The notes below the pieces were generated by a model that saw nothing but the letters and a program-made list of their open reading frames with translations, ran no database searches and was not told the DNA's origin. The position numbers were made by a program, and so were the translations under genes. From Candidatus Melainabacteria bacterium (GTDB taxonomy: Bacteria; Cyanobacteriota; Vampirovibrionia; 2-02-FULL-35-15), in assembly GCA_016193285.1 (NCBI GenBank), contig JACPSL010000018.1, positions 3,589 through 67,588 on the forward strand: a stretch of 64,000 nucleotides of DNA, in the 5' to 3' direction. Positions 7,412 through 58,509 of this stretch are shown piece by piece. Every line of letters starts with the position of its first letter. Position 1 is the first letter of the stretch.

Positions 7412-8161
7412 ATGGAAATAAAAACAGATACAAAAAAGATAATTATTGGTGCATTAATTGCAGTTGTTGTACTAAATGTTTTAGGTAAAGAGCTGCAAAA
7501 AAGTTTTGAAAAGTCAGTTTTAGAAGTTGTAAAGAAAAATCCAGAAGGATTTAAAACTGCCCTTGGTAATTTACCAACTGAAGTTACTCCGCCATCACCT
7601 GCCCAGCCCAGTGAAGAAGAACTTTTTAAGCAACAGTTAGAGGATAAGACAAGTGTAGATATTGGAAATACACCTATTCTTGGTAGAAGGGATGCAAAGA
7701 TTCAGTTAATTGTATTTAGTGATTTTCAATGTCCTTTCTCAAAACGTGGTGCAGATACTACTCATGCTTTAATTCAAAAATATGGAAACAAAATAATGTA
7801 TGTTTATAAAAATCTTCCTTTACCATTTCATCCTGAAGCAATGCCAGCAGCAAAAGCTGCACTAGCAGCCGGGAGACAAGGGAAGTATTATGAGTATCAT
7901 GATAAGCTTTTTGAAAATCAAGACAAATTAGGTGAACCGTTATATCTCCAGCTTGCAAAAGATCTTGGATTAAATATTGATAAGTTTAATACAGATAGAA
8001 AGAGCAAGGAAATTGAAGATCAAATTAATGCAGATACAACCCAAGCAAGTGCTATAGGTTTTAATGGCACTCCTGGTTTTACTTTAAATGGTGTAAAAAT
8101 TCTAGGAGCTTATCCAATTGAACATTTTGAAAAAGTAATTAGTGCTTTAGGAGTTAGTTAG
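7412..8161 (+). CDS. DsbA-family thioredoxin-fold protein with N-terminal membrane anchor
   Basis: FSDFQCPFSKR, NLPLPFHPEAMPAA, GFNGTPGF. Confidence 0.8.
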   Translation: MEIKTDTKKIIIGALIAVVVLNVLGKELQKSFEKSVLEVVKKNPEGFKTALGNLPTEVTPPSPAQPSEEELFKQQLEDKTSVDIGNTPILGRRDAKIQLIVFSDFQCPFSKRGADTTHALIQKYGNKIMYVYKNLPLPFHPEAMPAAKAALAAGRQGKYYEYHDKLFENQDKLGEPLYLQLAKDLGLNIDKFNTDRKSKEIEDQINADTTQASAIGFNGTPGFTLNGVKILGAYPIEHFEKVISALGVS

Positions 8162-53162: not shown

Positions 53163-53179
53163 TTTAATCTCGAGAAATT

Positions 53180-53270
53180 CGGAGAGTGAGGGATTCGAAC
53201 CCTCGATAGAGCTTTTGGCCCTATAACTTCTTAGCAGGAAGTCGCTTTCGACCAACTCAGCCAACTCTCC
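53180..53270 (-). tRNA. tRNA-Ser(GCT)
   Basis: Minus strand GGAGAGTTGGCTGAGTTGGTCGAAAGCG..ACTTC-CTGCTAA-GAAGT, long variable arm, GGTTCGAATCC T-arm; CCA not encoded. Confidence 0.95.
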
Positions 53271-53278
53271 ATTTTTAT

Positions 53279-53354
53279 GCTCACGATAAGCGTGAGCTTC
53301 CGTTGGTAGATCCCTTTCACCTGATCGGATTCACCGAGTAAATCGGATGAATCC
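53279..53354. repeat. 76-nt double-hairpin element, copy A (immediately 5' of tRNA-Ser)
   Basis: Same stem, bulge, loop and 29-nt spacer geometry as 58518-58593, with compensatory changes. Confidence 0.7.
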
Positions 53355-53607
53355 TTTATTGATAACGCCTCGGAACTGCTACGCAAATTCCTCGGCTATT
53401 AGATGTGTCACATCACTCGCTCGGACTTCTGCCTTGGGAAAATCCTTGCTTAGAATTTTTATTTTTCAGTATACTCTTTGTTAGTATTTTTTCCCTAAGG
53501 GATTTATCCATTTTAACAGTAAATATTCCTAAATATTATACTGGTAGAATATCCCTTGCACAATTTGTCTATTATAAGATAAAGTCTTAATAGTTCTCTC
53601 GTGACAA

Positions 53608-54975
53608 ATGAAAAAGACAAATATAATTACAATTATTTTATTTACATTGATTGTTGCTCTTGCTGCTTTTATTTTAGAACAAGATAAAGTTACTGGAGAA
53701 ACTAGCTGCCCACAAATACAAACTGATTGTGCAGGTGAACCACCTGGATGTGATTCTCCATTTGGAATTTATGATCCAACAATATGTATGTGTACTTGTC
53801 CTACTTCAAAACCAAATGACTTAAGCAGTAATAAATGTCTATGTCCCCAAGGGCAATATGCACTGGGCAATATGTGTTCAAAAGTTATTCATGGGGACTG
53901 TTTCCCAAAATACAAACCTGTCTGTGGTTGTGATGGGGTAACTTATGGAAATAGTTGCGTAGCATCATTTTTAGGAGTAAAAAAGAAAACAAAAGGTATT
54001 TGTAATTCCTTAAACCAAGAATTCGTAGTTTGTTTATCTGACGGGGATTGTCCTTTTGGCAGTTGCCAAGACGGAAGAACTTACCAAAAATATTCTTGTC
54101 TTGAAAGTATATGTGAAGAGTTAAATTTCTTTGCTGATCCATGCTTAGTAACATCTTCAGATAGCTTAGGAGATATCACACTAAATAAAAACTTTGCAGG
54201 TTTATGGAAAGCAAGAGTTTCTTCAAGTTCAGTAGAGTGTATTATTTGTACTCAAGTTGTTCCTCAATGTTTAGCTAACCAGACTTTAGTACCTCAAAGT
54301 TGTACTGAATGTGCACATTGTGTTAATGCTGTTACATCTTCAAGCTCAAGTTCATCTTCTTCAGGTAGTTCTAGCTCTCTTTCTAGTAGCTCCTCTTCTG
54401 GTTATTGTTGTACTTGCAACAATAGTATGCTTAATTGTACTGGTACTCCAACTTGTTCTGTAGGTGGAGGCAACACAGTTGTCTGCTCTGGTAACGATGC
54501 TTTTTGCTGTCCTTCTACCAATCTTAACTGTAATAATGCTATCTCATTTAATCAGCTCTCTTGTGTCTCTTCTTCAAGAAGTTTGTCTCCTTCTAATAAT
54601 AGTAGTTCTTCATTGTCATCTTCAAGCTCAAGTAGTGAATCAGTTATAAAAACCAACTTGCTTCATATAAATGAAGGACTTAGTGGCTCAAGAATTATTA
54701 CATTTAAACTTTGTGTTAGAGATGGAAAACTAGAAGGAACAGTCCATCAAGGTGATGTATTTATAAATGGAGTAATAAAATCACAAAACATACTTTCAGA
54801 AAATGAGGTCATCATAGACATAGTAGATAAAAACAATAACTCAACAAACTTAAGACTAAATCTTATTAGCAAGCGAGAAATGCAAGTAACATTTTCTGAT
54901 GAGCATACAACAAATGCTAGAAAACTTAATCTTTTTAAAAGTTGTTTATTAAAAAATCAAAACTCAAGAAAGTAA
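53608..54975 (+). CDS. Secreted Cys-rich protein with Kazal-type domain and poly-Ser tracts
   Basis: N-terminal signal/TM; PVCGCDGVTYGNSCVA Kazal motif; multiple Cys modules and S-runs. Confidence 0.8.
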   Translation: MKKTNIITIILFTLIVALAAFILEQDKVTGETSCPQIQTDCAGEPPGCDSPFGIYDPTICMCTCPTSKPNDLSSNKCLCPQGQYALGNMCSKVIHGDCFPKYKPVCGCDGVTYGNSCVASFLGVKKKTKGICNSLNQEFVVCLSDGDCPFGSCQDGRTYQKYSCLESICEELNFFADPCLVTSSDSLGDITLNKNFAGLWKARVSSSSVECIICTQVVPQCLANQTLVPQSCTECAHCVNAVTSSSSSSSSSGSSSSLSSSSSSGYCCTCNNSMLNCTGTPTCSVGGGNTVVCSGNDAFCCPSTNLNCNNAISFNQLSCVSSSRSLSPSNNSSSSLSSSSSSSESVIKTNLLHINEGLSGSRIITFKLCVRDGKLEGTVHQGDVFINGVIKSQNILSENEVIIDIVDKNNNSTNLRLNLISKREMQVTFSDEHTTNARKLNLFKSCLLKNQNSRK

Positions 54976-57069
54976 CTACTCAAACTTAAAAGCCTTACTG
55001 TATACGCTTTTAGAAACAATTTGCTTATTACATTGAATCCCGCCTGAAGAAGAATTAAAAGATACATTAGTCTTTGGTTCAGCAATAAGGATTAGATCAG
55101 CAAATGTCATTGAAACAAATTTTGGAGTAATTCCTGTAATTGTTTTCCCATCATCTGAGATAGAAACAGAGCTAGAACAAAATTTATTACTTCTAAAACA
55201 TACTTTTATATTTTTTGTAAAAATTGAAGGGTCAATAAAACCATCAATAGTAAACTCTGTACCACCTGAAAGAGGTCCTTTAATTGGAGCAATGCTTTTA
55301 AGTATTGGGCCTGGCTGAAGTTCAGTTATTGAAGTAATTGTGCTATCTTGAAAGTCAGGAACTATCAAGTATCTGCCATATGGATCACTAATTAAAGAGC
55401 TATTTTCAGAACCTTCTCCAATTGAATATTCACATACTAATGATAAGTCTATTAAATTCAAAACTTTGATTTTTCTCTGAGAATCTTTTTGAGCTAAAAC
55501 TAAAACATTGTTATTGTCAGGAGTAATATCAACACCTAAAACATTACTGACATCATTAAATTCTACAGACTTAAGAATTCTTGCTAGTTTAAGATCAAAT
55601 GTGTCTAATTTATAAACAATAATTCCACTTTCATCAACAACATTAGCTACAGAAACAGCTATTTTGCCATCTTGACTTAAAGTTGAAATAGTTTTTCCCT
55701 CAACCTCAGTACCTAAAAAACGAATTATCAATTTATTATTAAGCAGATCTAATATGTGCAAAACATGTCTTCCCCCAAAAGAAGAAGCTACTGCCTTAGT
55801 AGATCCTAAATCAAATTTAATTCTGCTTAAAATCTCATCAACCTTAGAAGATATTTTTGCTGGTATATCAAACTTAATTAGTTTTCTTGTTCTATTTATA
55901 AAAATACCAATAGACTCAGCAAAAGCTTCACTAAAAGTTATTACTGCTTCTTTAAAATCTGGAGCAAACTCAATTGACTTAGCATTATCTGGTATGGAAA
56001 TTTCTTTCTCAATTTTTTCAGTAGAAGTGCTGGCAATTACAAACTGTGGAGATTTTTCATCATCATCACTGACAATTAATTTTTTCCCCTCGTTATCATT
56101 AAAGCTTGCTGCAGTGATGCCTTTCTTAGCAAAGTAAAGAGTTCGTACTCCGGAACTGTCTGAAGAGAATGGATTTACAGCGCTAACTGAATTGTTAGTT
56201 AAATCTATAATTTGAATAATTGGAAAACTTCCACTTGAGCTGGATGAAGTAGCACCTGAACTACTTGAAGAGGAACAAGGGTCACTAGAAAATGTAATTA
56301 AAATACACATTGCACCACTACTACTGCTTGAAGCTGTACAGGTGAATTGCTTATATTTTCTTCCATCGTTGCAAGAACTTAAAGGACATTGATCATCGCT
56401 TATACAAGCAAGGTTGCTTTGAAATCCACAATTTGCTTTTGTATATTTTTTAATTCCATTTGCTCTTGCAATACAACTATTTAAATAATTTTGATTATCA
56501 CATCCGCAAACTGCATCTTGTGTACTTGGACAGGTTAATGTACCAACTACACAAGAGGCCTCGTCAAAGTAATTTCCAGAAGAACATTTACAACTTGTTC
56601 CTTGATTAACTTGTTGAAGAAGAGTACTGCTTTCACTTGAAATTGCTGAAACAAGTGCTTTATTTTTATCTTTGCTGATGCCAATTTTTAAAACGTTAAG
56701 ATCTAAATTTTCCCCGCGTAGAGGAATAAGAACTTCATGATTAATCATGTTAGAAGAGAAATTAAATTTTCTAACATAAGGTTTTTTTGATGAATCAACA
56801 ATTAAAAAGAAAGAACCATCACTTGAAACTGATAAATCTGTAATATTATTTAAACACCTATCCTCTATGCATCTTGGAATACTACTAACTACTTCTGCTT
56901 TAACCGAGGCTATTAACAAAAGAAAAAAACTAAAAAAGACAACACAAGTATAAAATTTTTGTATGGATTTTACTAATAAATTGTTTTTAATGCATGACTT
57001 ATTCATTATTTTTAAATTATAGTTGTAGTTGCTAATTGGTCGTAGGGAAAGCTTTATAAATAATAACAA
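54976..57069 (-). CDS. Secreted beta-propeller-like protein with inserted Kazal-type/Cys-rich module, poly-Ser linkers and C-terminal IPT/TIG-like domain
   Basis: AVCGCDNQNYLNSCIA; propeller-like repeats (LSVSSDG, IEFAPDF, VDITPDN, ISDPYGR); PILKSIAPIKGPLSGGTEFTIDG. Confidence 0.75.
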   Translation of the reverse strand: MLLFIKLSLRPISNYNYNLKIMNKSCIKNNLLVKSIQKFYTCVVFFSFFLLLIASVKAEVVSSIPRCIEDRCLNNITDLSVSSDGSFFLIVDSSKKPYVRKFNFSSNMINHEVLIPLRGENLDLNVLKIGISKDKNKALVSAISSESSTLLQQVNQGTSCKCSSGNYFDEASCVVGTLTCPSTQDAVCGCDNQNYLNSCIARANGIKKYTKANCGFQSNLACISDDQCPLSSCNDGRKYKQFTCTASSSSSGAMCILITFSSDPCSSSSSSGATSSSSSGSFPIIQIIDLTNNSVSAVNPFSSDSSGVRTLYFAKKGITAASFNDNEGKKLIVSDDDEKSPQFVIASTSTEKIEKEISIPDNAKSIEFAPDFKEAVITFSEAFAESIGIFINRTRKLIKFDIPAKISSKVDEILSRIKFDLGSTKAVASSFGGRHVLHILDLLNNKLIIRFLGTEVEGKTISTLSQDGKIAVSVANVVDESGIIVYKLDTFDLKLARILKSVEFNDVSNVLGVDITPDNNNVLVLAQKDSQRKIKVLNLIDLSLVCEYSIGEGSENSSLISDPYGRYLIVPDFQDSTITSITELQPGPILKSIAPIKGPLSGGTEFTIDGFIDPSIFTKNIKVCFRSNKFCSSSVSISDDGKTITGITPKFVSMTFADLILIAEPKTNVSFNSSSGGIQCNKQIVSKSVYSKAFKFE

Positions 57070-57105: not shown

Positions 57106-58509
57106 ATGGCAAAGAAGGTTTTAATCGTCGGATGGGACTGTGCTTCACCTGACTGGGTATTTGATAAGTGGATTAATAATTTACCCACCTTAAAATTACT
57201 TTTTAAAAAGAGTGTTTATGGAAATCTTACAAGTACCATTCCACCAATTACTGTACCAGCATGGCAGTGTATGTTAACAAGCAAAGATCCTGGACAGCTT
57301 GGTGTTTATGGTTTTAGAAACAGGAAAGATTATAGCTACGATGGTCAGTACTTTTCAAATGGAGCTGATATTTTAGAGCCTGCTGTTTGGGACATACTTG
57401 GTAAAATAAATAAAAAATCAATCTTAGTTGGTGTACCACAAACATATCCTCCAAGACCAATTAATGGTCATATGGTAACTTGTTTTTTAACCCCAAGTAT
57501 TAAGTCACAATATACTTATCCAAATGAACTAAGATATGAAATAGAAGAAAATATTGGGGAATATATTCCTGATGTAAAACAATTTAGGACTGAAGACAGG
57601 GATTTTATTTTAAAGCAAATTTACGAAGCAACTAAAACAAGATTTAAAACTTTTAGACATCTTTTAAAAACAAAAGAGTGGGATTTTGCAATGATTGTTG
57701 AAATGGGCACAGATCGTATCCATCATAGCTTTTGGAAATTTTTAGATCCCTTGCATCCTAAATATGAAATTGGAAATAAATATGAAAATGTAATTCCAGA
57801 ATATTATAAATATCTCGACAATGAATTGGCAGAAACATTAAAATTGGTTGATTTAAATGAAACAGCAATAATGGTTGTATCTGACCATGGCGCAAAAGCA
57901 ATGATTGGAGGGATTTGCATAAATGAATGGCTTATAAAAGAAGGGCTTTTAACTTTAAAAGAATACCCAAAAACATTTACTCCAATTGAAAAATTAGAAA
58001 TTGACTGGTCTAAAACAAAAGTTTGGGGATCAGGTGGTTACTATGCACGAATATTTATAAATGTTCAAGGTCGAGAGCCAAACGGACAAATACCACAAAG
58101 TGAATATAAAGAACTCAGAGCCAAACTAAAAGAAAAAATTGAAAATATAAAAGATGAACGAGGAAGAAAGCTAGCTACAGTTGCATATATTCCAGAAGAA
58201 ATTTATAAGACAACAAATCGTATACCTCCAGATTTAATTGTAATTTTTGATGATTTAAGATGGAGATCGGTCGGTAGCGTAGGAATAAATTCTATTTATA
58301 CTTATGAAAATGATACAGGTCCTGATGAAGCCAATCATGCACAAGAAGGCTTGTATCTATTATTTGATCCAAAAAATATTTCAAGTGGTAGGAGAGATGA
58401 CAAGCATCATTTAATGGATATCGCACCAACAGTATTGGACCTTTTAGGTGTTAAAATACCTAGTGATATGCTAGGAAAATCAATTTGTGGGTTAGGGGTA
58501 CACGTTTGA
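57106..58509 (+). CDS. Alkaline-phosphatase-superfamily nucleotide pyrophosphatase/phosphodiesterase
   Basis: IVGWDCA, STIPPITVPAW...TSKDPG, DRIHHSFW, VSDHGA, NHAQEG, DIAPTVL. Confidence 0.88.
   Translation: MAKKVLIVGWDCASPDWVFDKWINNLPTLKLLFKKSVYGNLTSTIPPITVPAWQCMLTSKDPGQLGVYGFRNRKDYSYDGQYFSNGADILEPAVWDILGKINKKSILVGVPQTYPPRPINGHMVTCFLTPSIKSQYTYPNELRYEIEENIGEYIPDVKQFRTEDRDFILKQIYEATKTRFKTFRHLLKTKEWDFAMIVEMGTDRIHHSFWKFLDPLHPKYEIGNKYENVIPEYYKYLDNELAETLKLVDLNETAIMVVSDHGAKAMIGGICINEWLIKEGLLTLKEYPKTFTPIEKLEIDWSKTKVWGSGGYYARIFINVQGREPNGQIPQSEYKELRAKLKEKIENIKDERGRKLATVAYIPEEIYKTTNRIPPDLIVIFDDLRWRSVGSVGINSIYTYENDTGPDEANHAQEGLYLLFDPKNISSGRRDDKHHLMDIAPTVLDLLGVKIPSDMLGKSICGLGVHV

Follow-up and report, generated by a model that had tools for sequence, protein, structure and literature searches.

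A Kazal-type unit joined to a rare six-cysteine module forms a cassette in two predicted exported scaffold proteins of a Candidatus Melainabacteria bacterium

Two convergent open reading frames (ORFs) in the genome of a Candidatus Melainabacteria bacterium, termed here ORF A and ORF B, encode Cys-rich proteins that share a cassette composed of a Kazal-type unit and a rare module with six Cys (module 2); the cassette occupies loops of two different scaffolds. The pair lies in a stretch of 64,000 nucleotides (contig JACPSL010000018.1, positions 3,589 to 67,588 of the forward strand), referred to as the window, whose numbering is used throughout. Both ORFs are real, conserved genes with export signals, and they belong to a lineage-restricted family that is tied to one genomic slot and whose modules and copy number vary. 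Within this slot the family diversifies as small Cys-rich modules are gained, lost, duplicated and exchanged. As to function, we favour, at a probability of roughly 45%, the reading that A and B are displayed serine-protease inhibitors acting through their Kazal head.

Kazal inhibitors are textbook animal proteins, and we know of no bacterial Kazal protein that has been characterised biochemically; a literature search retrieved no paper in which Kazal and Melainabacteria occur together. Secreted Kazal-bearing mosaic proteins of bacteria are a kind already known. What is new is module 2, together with a cassette of three fixed parts that is inserted in zero to three copies into a hairpin of the propeller; further new elements are the predicted lipocalin-like barrel loop as an insertion site and the confinement of the family to one conserved slot.

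The shared cassette

A BLASTP comparison aligns A with B at 48% identity over 63 amino acids (aa) (A105-167 and B187-247; E 3e-14). The first-pass annotation of this DNA had recognised a Kazal motif and a second Cys module in both proteins, and the shared unit turned out to be longer: it spans aa 77-179 of A (103 aa) and aa 139-244 of B (106 aa). Across 39 aligned copies from relatives, each of 101-107 aa, 14 Cys are invariant, and the non-Cys positions in VCGCD, NSC.A, G.K.FTKG and DPC are also kept. The cassette is built of three consecutive parts: a short hairpin, CxC...G..F....C; the Kazal-like core, C-x7/8-VC[GS]C[DN]..[YF].N.C.A...G.K.[FY]TKG.C; and module 2, C-x2-D-x2-CP-x-G-x-C-x2-G-x-[TK][YF]-x2-[YF]-x-C-x3-5-C-x4-[FY]-x2-[DE]PC. 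As had been noted before, poly-Ser follows the cassette in both proteins, and in B a poly-Ser tract is inserted in the fourth loop of module 2. An AlphaFold2 model of the A cassette, computed with the family alignment, reaches a predicted local distance difference test (pLDDT) score of 90.9.

The Kazal motifs pass profile matching, ORF A by Pfam (Kazal_1, 26.4 bits with the full-length sequence and 31.8 bits with the module excised, at a cut-off of 21) and both A and B by family profiles. A profile from B-type proteins only matches leech-derived tryptase inhibitor (LDTI) with an E-value of 3.1e-5. The profile of 39 cassettes, compared with solved structures, again finds LDTI (2.7e-7), followed by ovomucoid, PSTI/SPINK1, silk inhibitor 2, rhodniin and infestin, all matches being limited to positions 11-60. 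The best sequence matches are non-classical invertebrate inhibitors, at only ~48% over 40 aa. Foldseek places infestin-4, LDTI and OMTKY3, the ovomucoid third domain, on top of the list for the A cassette model, with target-normalised TM-scores of 0.56-0.81; since the domains are so small, E-values are 0.1 or higher. The follistatin (FS) domains of FSTL3 (E 0.19), Fstl1 (0.5) and Hevin are also aligned, over 68-79 columns.

Comparison with OMTKY3 and LDTI identifies Cys2, Cys3, Cys4 and Cys6 of the classical pattern, with no counterpart of Cys1 and Cys5. An additional Cys follows Cys3 (CGCD) and presumably pairs into the N-terminal hairpin. Given the loss of Cys1 and Cys5 and the extra Cys, the unit is therefore a non-classical Kazal domain with a follistatin-like extension. 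Kazal domains with two disulfides are known (PMC1236909).

The canonical reactive loop, defined as Cys2-x7-Cys3 with P1 two residues after Cys2, has its seven residues in both window copies, C-FPKYKPV-C in A and C-PSTQDAV-C in B. Variability within the cassette peaks at positions P2 to P2' (2.9-3.2 bits), a trait shared with canonical Kazal families, and textbook loops such as C-T-L-E and C-I-L-L are present among the relatives.

Module 2 and its distribution

Six Cys are invariant in 44 copies of module 2, which spans 38 aa in ORF A. The module, earlier described as unnamed, is rare and apparently without a family name: neither the A nor the B copy draws a Pfam match even at E<=10, the 44-copy profile has no sequence match in the PDB (best E 1.6), and the same profile collects just 87 proteins at E<=1e-3 among 1.84e9 cluster representatives. 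In the cassette model, module 2 is confidently folded (pLDDT 94-95) into short beta-hairpins. About half of the 87 proteins carry the two Melainabacteria scaffolds; the others are mostly small, with a signal peptide or lipobox, apart from a few large mosaics. Pfam domains found beside module 2 are Kazal, Hint_2, TIG, Kelch, FG-GAP and PKD, and one distant holder also bears Pacifastin inhibitor domains. Module 2 occurs without Kazal in P0004, P0006, P0007 and P0012, and the second Kazal of P0013 occurs without module 2; the two are therefore separable.

An assignment of module 2 to the Late nodulin/NCR family (PF07127) was rejected, as the distant holders P0088 and P0098 score 21.2 and 17 bits against a cut-off of 30.4, these scores rest partly on signal peptides, and the window modules give none. 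For P0088 a precomputed match to PF27854 (Heavy_Cys_CGP), a newer Pfam family outside the set searched here, is on record, and module 2 may thus already bear a name; the record holds no such match for the three-cassette protein P0009 or for the database entry of ORF A.

Module-2- or cassette-like matches were also observed in giant open frames of related genomes (7102, 5127, 2795 and 2247 aa; G006:C11:109567-109707, G011:C74:116027-116551, G011:C26 and G004:C1), which suggests that very large surface proteins make use of the mini-modules as well.

The gene pair and its start sites

ORF A and ORF B converge with a gap of zero, as first described, the stop TAA (54973-54975) touching CTA (54976-54978). 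The G+C content amounts to ~31% across the whole window, equals that of the genome and shows no compositional break at the gene pair. A terminator between the abutting stops was sought and discarded, as none turned up and neither promoters nor terminators were counted more often than in shuffled sequence.

In the database, ORF A is represented by P0001, a gene call of 395 aa that begins at Met61 and thus omits the signal peptide and a conserved module, CPQIQTDC (window 53608-53790). Position 53608 is the better start, because the region before Met61, including this 6-Cys module, is kept in the orthologues P0002-P0004; the start of P0001 is probably mis-called. For ORF B, a TTG at 57069 offers an alternative upstream start. 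The ATG at 57006 is likelier; it is used in the database and yields a signal peptide ending in ASVKA, ahead of EVV.

Read from these starts, the N-terminus of A is MKKTNIITIILFTLIVALAAFILEQDKVTG, followed by E, and that of B contains FFSFFLLLIASVKA, followed by EVV; both have the appearance of Sec-type signal sequences. The pattern MKK..(hydrophobic)..KVxGQ of A is kept in relatives, and the xKA/E cleavage site of B is common to its orthologues, 12 of which were found at 44-52% identity. We infer that both signal peptides are cleaved and both proteins exported.

The two scaffolds

The ORF B family profile matches 1L0Q, a YVTN propeller (1e-5), as well as 5C2V (0.028) and 3VGZ (0.037). A match to NCBIfam hydrazine_beta (6e-5) is far under the equivalog cut-off and therefore indicates the fold only. 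The C-terminal tail had previously been called IPT/TIG-like. Its location is consistent, with TIG (PF01833) matching at the same place in seven of ten orthologues (14.9-19.6 bits) and covering model positions 1-73 of 84; its score is near-threshold only, the window protein reaching 15.8 bits where 20.9 are required.

In the alignment of orthologues, the cassette array of B-type proteins sits between ...KKAFV and IIDLTNNSV. P0043 reads straight through this point, the window protein, P0038 and P0041 hold one cassette, most other orthologues two, and P0032 and P0040 three. The cassette thus indeed interrupts the propeller of B, as the first reading of the DNA had proposed.

The scaffold domain of ORF A has the form LNKNFxGxWKGR ... 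IITLKLCVKDGKLEG ... FEA[KR]K in relatives, and the F, G and W of its first strand are invariant in 21 of them. The domain is uninterrupted in P0027, P0056 and P0008, and most other relatives carry a CxxC...CxxCxxC insert after the first barrel strand, with or without poly-Ser. In the AlphaFold2 model of aa 192-455, strand 7-12 (aa 198-203) joins seven C-terminal strands and a terminal helix (pLDDT 92-98), and the inserts score lower. The contiguous relatives and the rejoined halves of the model bear out the previous description of a split beta-rich domain. Foldseek returns only small eight- to ten-stranded barrels, namely the Tp0751 lipocalin fold (probability 0.99), Brucella Omp19 (U-Omp19), fatty-acid-binding proteins, lipocalin-like proteins and designed barrels, all with E-values of 0.03 or above, and no Pfam lipocalin family matches ORF A, so the resemblance is at fold level only. 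The domain is modelled as a lipocalin-like eight-stranded barrel with its first loop as the insertion site.

Modules other than the cassette differ in how widely they are shared. The CxxC...CxxCxxC type also occurs N-terminally in P0005, P0007 and P0013, and the Cys-dense module CCTCNN...LSC is unique to the window protein, being absent in 20 of 20 aligned relatives. Near the C-terminus of the B-type protein P0052, a CxxC...CxxCxxC module (CKTCESTPLVCLQGQVLTPVSCCECPKC) was observed as well, which makes it a second module common to both scaffolds.

Neither ORF A nor ORF B matches Hint_2 (PF13403), and ORF A ends nine residues past the barrel. Among relatives, Hint_2 is present in P0013 and in five of 77 members. 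In most A-type relatives (P0004, P0005, P0007, P0008, P0011, P0013, P0014 and P0016; loci L009-L012) the barrel is followed by a further Cys module, CRG.NG..L.CP.GT.CSGLPAYGCYPPGCP, and by a C-terminal Hint_2 domain that ends with YYANGVLIGSTLK; ORF A and its nearest orthologues have neither this Cys module nor Hint. The features of the locus are compiled in Table 1.

Table 1. Features of the ORF A/ORF B locus, in window coordinates
Feature	Position	Strand	Remarks
tRNA-Ser(GCU), left slot boundary	53179..53271	-	ARAGORN and Rfam
ORF A	53608..54975	+	455 aa, modular, Cys-rich, predicted exported; 38 Cys, 73 Ser
ORF A, putative signal peptide	53608..53697	+	MKK, hydrophobic core, ...VTG before E; read from the sequence
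ORF A, N-terminal 6-Cys module CPQIQTDC...CMCTC	53707..53799	+	kept in P0002-P0007; no Pfam match at E<=10
ORF A cassette, CxC hairpin and non-classical Kazal	53836..54003	+	aa 77-132; Kazal_1 31.8 bits
ORF A cassette, module 2, CxxDxxCPxGxC...[YF]xC...C...F..DPC	54031..54144	+	aa 142-179
ORF A, first strand of lipocalin-like barrel (predicted)	54181..54219	+	LNKNFAGLWKARV, GxW motif; AlphaFold2 strand 7-12, pLDDT 96
ORF A, CxxC...CxxCxxC module in first barrel loop	54238..54321	+	pLDDT 87-94; present or absent among relatives
ORF A, Cys-dense module CCTCNN...LSC between poly-Ser tracts	54406..54564	+	low model confidence; no Pfam match
ORF A, remaining seven barrel strands (predicted)	54688..54945	+	AlphaFold2 strands 172-250, pLDDT 92-98
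ORF B	54976..57006	-	676 aa from ATG, predicted exported; propeller-IPT protein with one cassette
ORF B, IPT/TIG-like Ig domain	55078..55314	-	aa 565-643; TIG E 0.014
ORF B, main YVTN-type propeller body	55315..56223	-	aa 262-564
ORF B cassette, module 2	56275..56406	-	aa 201-244; 49.8 bits against module-2 hidden Markov model (HMM)
ORF B cassette, CxC hairpin and Kazal-like	56428..56592	-	aa 139-193; Kazal_2 20.8 bits
ORF B, first propeller part ahead of cassette	56644..56895	-	family profile matches 1L0Q, YncE, hydrazine synthase beta
ORF B, putative signal peptide	56896..57006	-	...LLLIASVKA before EVV; same basis as for ORF A
Type I phosphodiesterase gene, right slot boundary	57106..58509	+	PF01663, 2.3e-42

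Genomic slot, distribution and evolution

In nine relatives, the family genes are always located between tRNA-Ser(GCU) and a four-gene block that encodes a phosphodiesterase, an APS-kinase-like protein, Fe-ADH_2 and an NTP-transferase. The phosphodiesterase is 81-89% identical and adjoins Cys-rich genes in nine of nine relatives, and the tRNA bounds the slot in eight, the ninth locus being a short contig. From one to three members of the family occupy the slot, a B-type gene being present in some cases and lacking in others, and the convergent A/B arrangement was seen again in three genomes, once with abutting stops. In the window genome itself (1.81 Mb in 39 contigs, 96% complete), an HMM search of all six-frame ORFs retrieved A and B and no further paralogues.

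The neighbourhood of tRNA-Ser had been pointed out from the sequence of the pair. The tRNA is there, and the link is positional only: tRNA-Ser(GCU) is a slot boundary and nothing else. A tie to the Ser tracts was considered and rejected, as the tract codons are mixed (TCT, TCA, AGT, AGC), as in the rest of the genome. Between the tRNA and ORF A, 53272-53460 has 44% G+C, compared to 27% for the next 150 bases, and pieces of 44-47 nucleotides from it are 83-86% identical in the slots of the relatives L007 and L012. The idea of a structured RNA in this stretch was dropped, since Rfam gave nothing at E<=1.

When 251 genomes from the class were surveyed, the Caenarcaniphilales-type family had the cassette in 11 of its 12 genomes and in eight genera, and the remaining 239 genomes lacked it. 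At the level of the phylum, 20 of 301 genomes encode Kazal_1, most often as proteins of ~85 aa that belong to a single other family, and the 14 control genomes had none, a distribution as sporadic as had been expected for Kazal domains in bacteria. The named relatives are metagenome-assembled genomes (MAGs) from groundwater, assigned to Candidatus Melainabacteria (New Zealand, Rifle and Californian groundwater) and in one case to 'Candidatus Caenarcanales'.

A maximum likelihood tree of 60 cassettes groups the A cassette with those of P0002 and P0003 (100/100) and assigns the B cassette to a clade of 40 members (99/93), among them every propeller cassette. Cassettes from lipocalin-type scaffolds (P0009, P0044-46) are nested within this propeller clade (95/89 and 98/87), and the cassette has therefore moved between scaffold types. 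Recent copying between A and B themselves was rejected, as their cassettes are 39% identical and fall in different well-supported clades.

Two side observations concern the phosphodiesterase of the slot. The 669-kb contig L023 (CAZRTB010000001.1), titled 'uncultured Gammaproteobacteria bacterium', is syntenic with the slot, with the same neighbours and a phosphodiesterase 82% identical; its taxonomic label is probably wrong. In Scalindua and Nitrospirae MAGs from similar habitats (L024, L025, L029 and L030) the phosphodiesterase is still 54-58% identical, which is unusually high across phyla.

Functional interpretation

According to the favoured reading, A and B would leave the cytoplasm via Sec, undergo oxidative folding outside it and display their Kazal heads there on the two scaffolds. 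The exposed hypervariable loop (P3 Cys, P2, P1 and P1') would bind the active site of a serine protease in the substrate-like fashion of the 'standard mechanism', module 2 might act as a rigid spacer or as a second contact surface, and as a result the cell envelope would be protected, or foreign or own proteases would be neutralised. Oxidative folding is supported by two DsbA-like (Thioredoxin_4) genes, one within the window (7667-8143; G000:C15:11255-11731) and one at G000:C36:40967-41440. An S8 subtilase, at least one of which is encoded in the genome, is a possible own target. S8 subtilase matches lie at two contig ends (G000:C23:18768-19325 and G000:C29:56-349), the second with in-frame stops; they could stem from a single gene that the assembly has divided, or from a pseudogene.

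A number of observations weigh against an inhibitory function. P1 is Pro in A (C-F-P-K) and Ser in B (C-P-S-T), both poor for canonical inhibition, and Pro is reportedly among the weakest P1 residues in the OMTKY3 variant series. The C1-C5 disulfide is missing, so that the classical 1-5, 2-4, 3-6 set is incomplete, and the extra Cys of CGCD adds to the deviation. In 23 of the 39 cassettes, many of them B-type, the loop has eight residues. ORF B alone stays under the Pfam cut-off (Kazal_2, 17.4-20.8 bits, with 22.8 required), and the Foldseek E-values are non-significant for all small domains. No DsbB or VKOR that might recycle DsbA was detected in the 96%-complete genome. Finally, the follistatin-type Kazal units of animals are mostly binding modules rather than inhibitors. 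Our caution about the inhibitor reading stems mainly from the unfavourable P1 residues in the two window copies and from the changed disulfide arrangement.

The last of these points leads to an alternative that we regard as possible, if doubtful: the cassette may be a binding or adhesion head as in follistatin, agrin and SPARC, and A and B adhesins or surface-layer-associated receptors. Particles, polysaccharides or other cells would be the targets, and the number of cassettes would tune reach and avidity. The B propeller, which matches the archaeal S-layer propeller 1L0Q and is followed by an Ig-like domain, would suit such a role, as would the A barrel, which is closest to the adhesin Tp0751. 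The Ser-rich linkers, the variation from zero to three repeats, the poor P1 residues and the Foldseek alignments with FS domains point in the same direction. Yet no ligand is indicated, the fold matches are non-significant, the sequence profile fits true inhibitors far better than FS domains, and textbook reactive sites (C-T-L-E) are kept in relatives.

A wider reading, which we judge unlikely as a whole, sees in the slot a lineage-wide diversification hotspot, where at least five mini disulfide domains would be shuffled exon-style into the loops of a few scaffold genes. Besides the Kazal unit and module 2, the pool may comprise the CxxC module, the CPQIQTDC module and the module preceding Hint. 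The products would form a displayed, rapidly evolving repertoire of inhibitor or receptor heads in an arms race with proteases that grazers, competitors or phages may bring in. In this view module 2 would represent a new fold family, one shared with other groundwater microbes.

Quite improbable, in our estimate, is the proposal that the modules are inert, protease-resistant, disulfide-stapled spacers on Ser strings and that all function resides in barrel and propeller. It would explain why the cassette can be absent (P0043) or multiplied with the scaffold retained, why other, unrelated Cys mini-modules occupy equivalent loops, and why the window-specific Cys module of A has no conserved relatives. 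However, many non-Cys positions are conserved across the 39 copies, and variability is concentrated at the canonical contact loop, not evenly spread. A recent eukaryote-to-bacterium transfer of a follistatin/agrin-type unit in a host-associated lifestyle is very improbable, since the FS-like layout (an EGF-like hairpin plus Kazal) and the absence of Kazal from the other 239 genomes of the class are outweighed by the presence of the cassette in eight genera at a syntenic slot, which makes it old and vertically kept, by a G+C content equal to that of the genome, by best matches that are non-classical invertebrate inhibitors of limited similarity, by a disulfide pattern unlike that of FS domains, by an origin of all sources in groundwater MAGs and by the occurrence of Kazal in another cyanobacterial family.

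The first-pass annotation had suggested that the pair may constitute a host- or prey-facing, protease-inhibiting surface system. This interpretation is partly supported: the anatomy was read correctly (Kazal plus unnamed Cys module, a cassette in two scaffolds, Ser linkers). The functional part is an inference; the source organism is a free-living-type groundwater MAG for which neither host nor prey is indicated, and P1 in both window copies is poor for a canonical inhibitor.

The family offers a compact, conserved bacterial version of the Kazal domain with a different disulfide layout, and its variants with zero to three copies amount to a natural experiment on bacterial domain insertion and module shuffling. 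It is also a source of small, stable disulfide-knotted scaffolds, module 2 included, and a handle on the envelope biology of uncultured, non-photosynthetic cyanobacterial relatives. If the heads do inhibit proteases, their hypervariable loops would hint at a conflict fought outside the cell among groundwater microbes.

Relation to known proteins

Non-classical Kazal inhibitors (MEROPS I1), such as LDTI (1AN1/1LDT/2KMO), infestin-4 (2ERW) and the ovomucoid third domain, share with the cassette the core PVCG.D..TY.N.C...G.....G.C, the Cys2-x7-Cys3 spacing, a short helix, a small sheet and the hypervariable loop. Unlike these inhibitors, which are free or arranged in simple tandem arrays, the cassette is embedded in large scaffolds, lacks Cys1-Cys5, has the extra Cys of CGCD along with three hairpin Cys, and bears Pro or Ser at P1 in the window copies. 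FS domains (FOLN plus Kazal), known from follistatin, FSTL1/3, SPARC/Hevin and agrin, likewise have a hairpin followed by Kazal and form repeated beads in extracellular mosaics. In contrast to them, the hairpin-Kazal portion of the cassette has eight Cys instead of ten, a third module with six Cys follows, and the lineage is bacterial; no Pfam FOLN match to the cassette was obtained at E<=10, and Foldseek E-values for FS domains range from 0.19 to 1.6.

Closest to ORF A are the Kazal-Hint proteins of related Melainabacteria (P0004, P0005, P0008, P0011 and P0013), which have the same signal peptide, cassette, barrel and slot. ORF A, P0002 and P0003 differ from them in ending after the barrel, and ORF A has an extra Cys module in the barrel loop. 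ORF B resembles the archaeal S-layer protein 1L0Q, which consists of a tandem YVTN propeller and PKD, in that a YVTN propeller precedes an Ig-like domain in a predicted exported protein; it differs in having an IPT-like domain instead of PKD, a Cys-rich cassette array in one blade hairpin and a bacterial host. Lastly, the bacterial lipocalin-fold proteins (Tp0751, 5JK2; the Brucella protease inhibitor Omp19, 7MHW; Bacteroides lipocalin-like proteins) show the eight-stranded antiparallel barrel, GxW strand and C-terminal helix that are predicted for ORF A. Compared with them, ORF A has no sequence-level match, and its A-B loop holds up to ~155 residues of Cys modules and poly-Ser.

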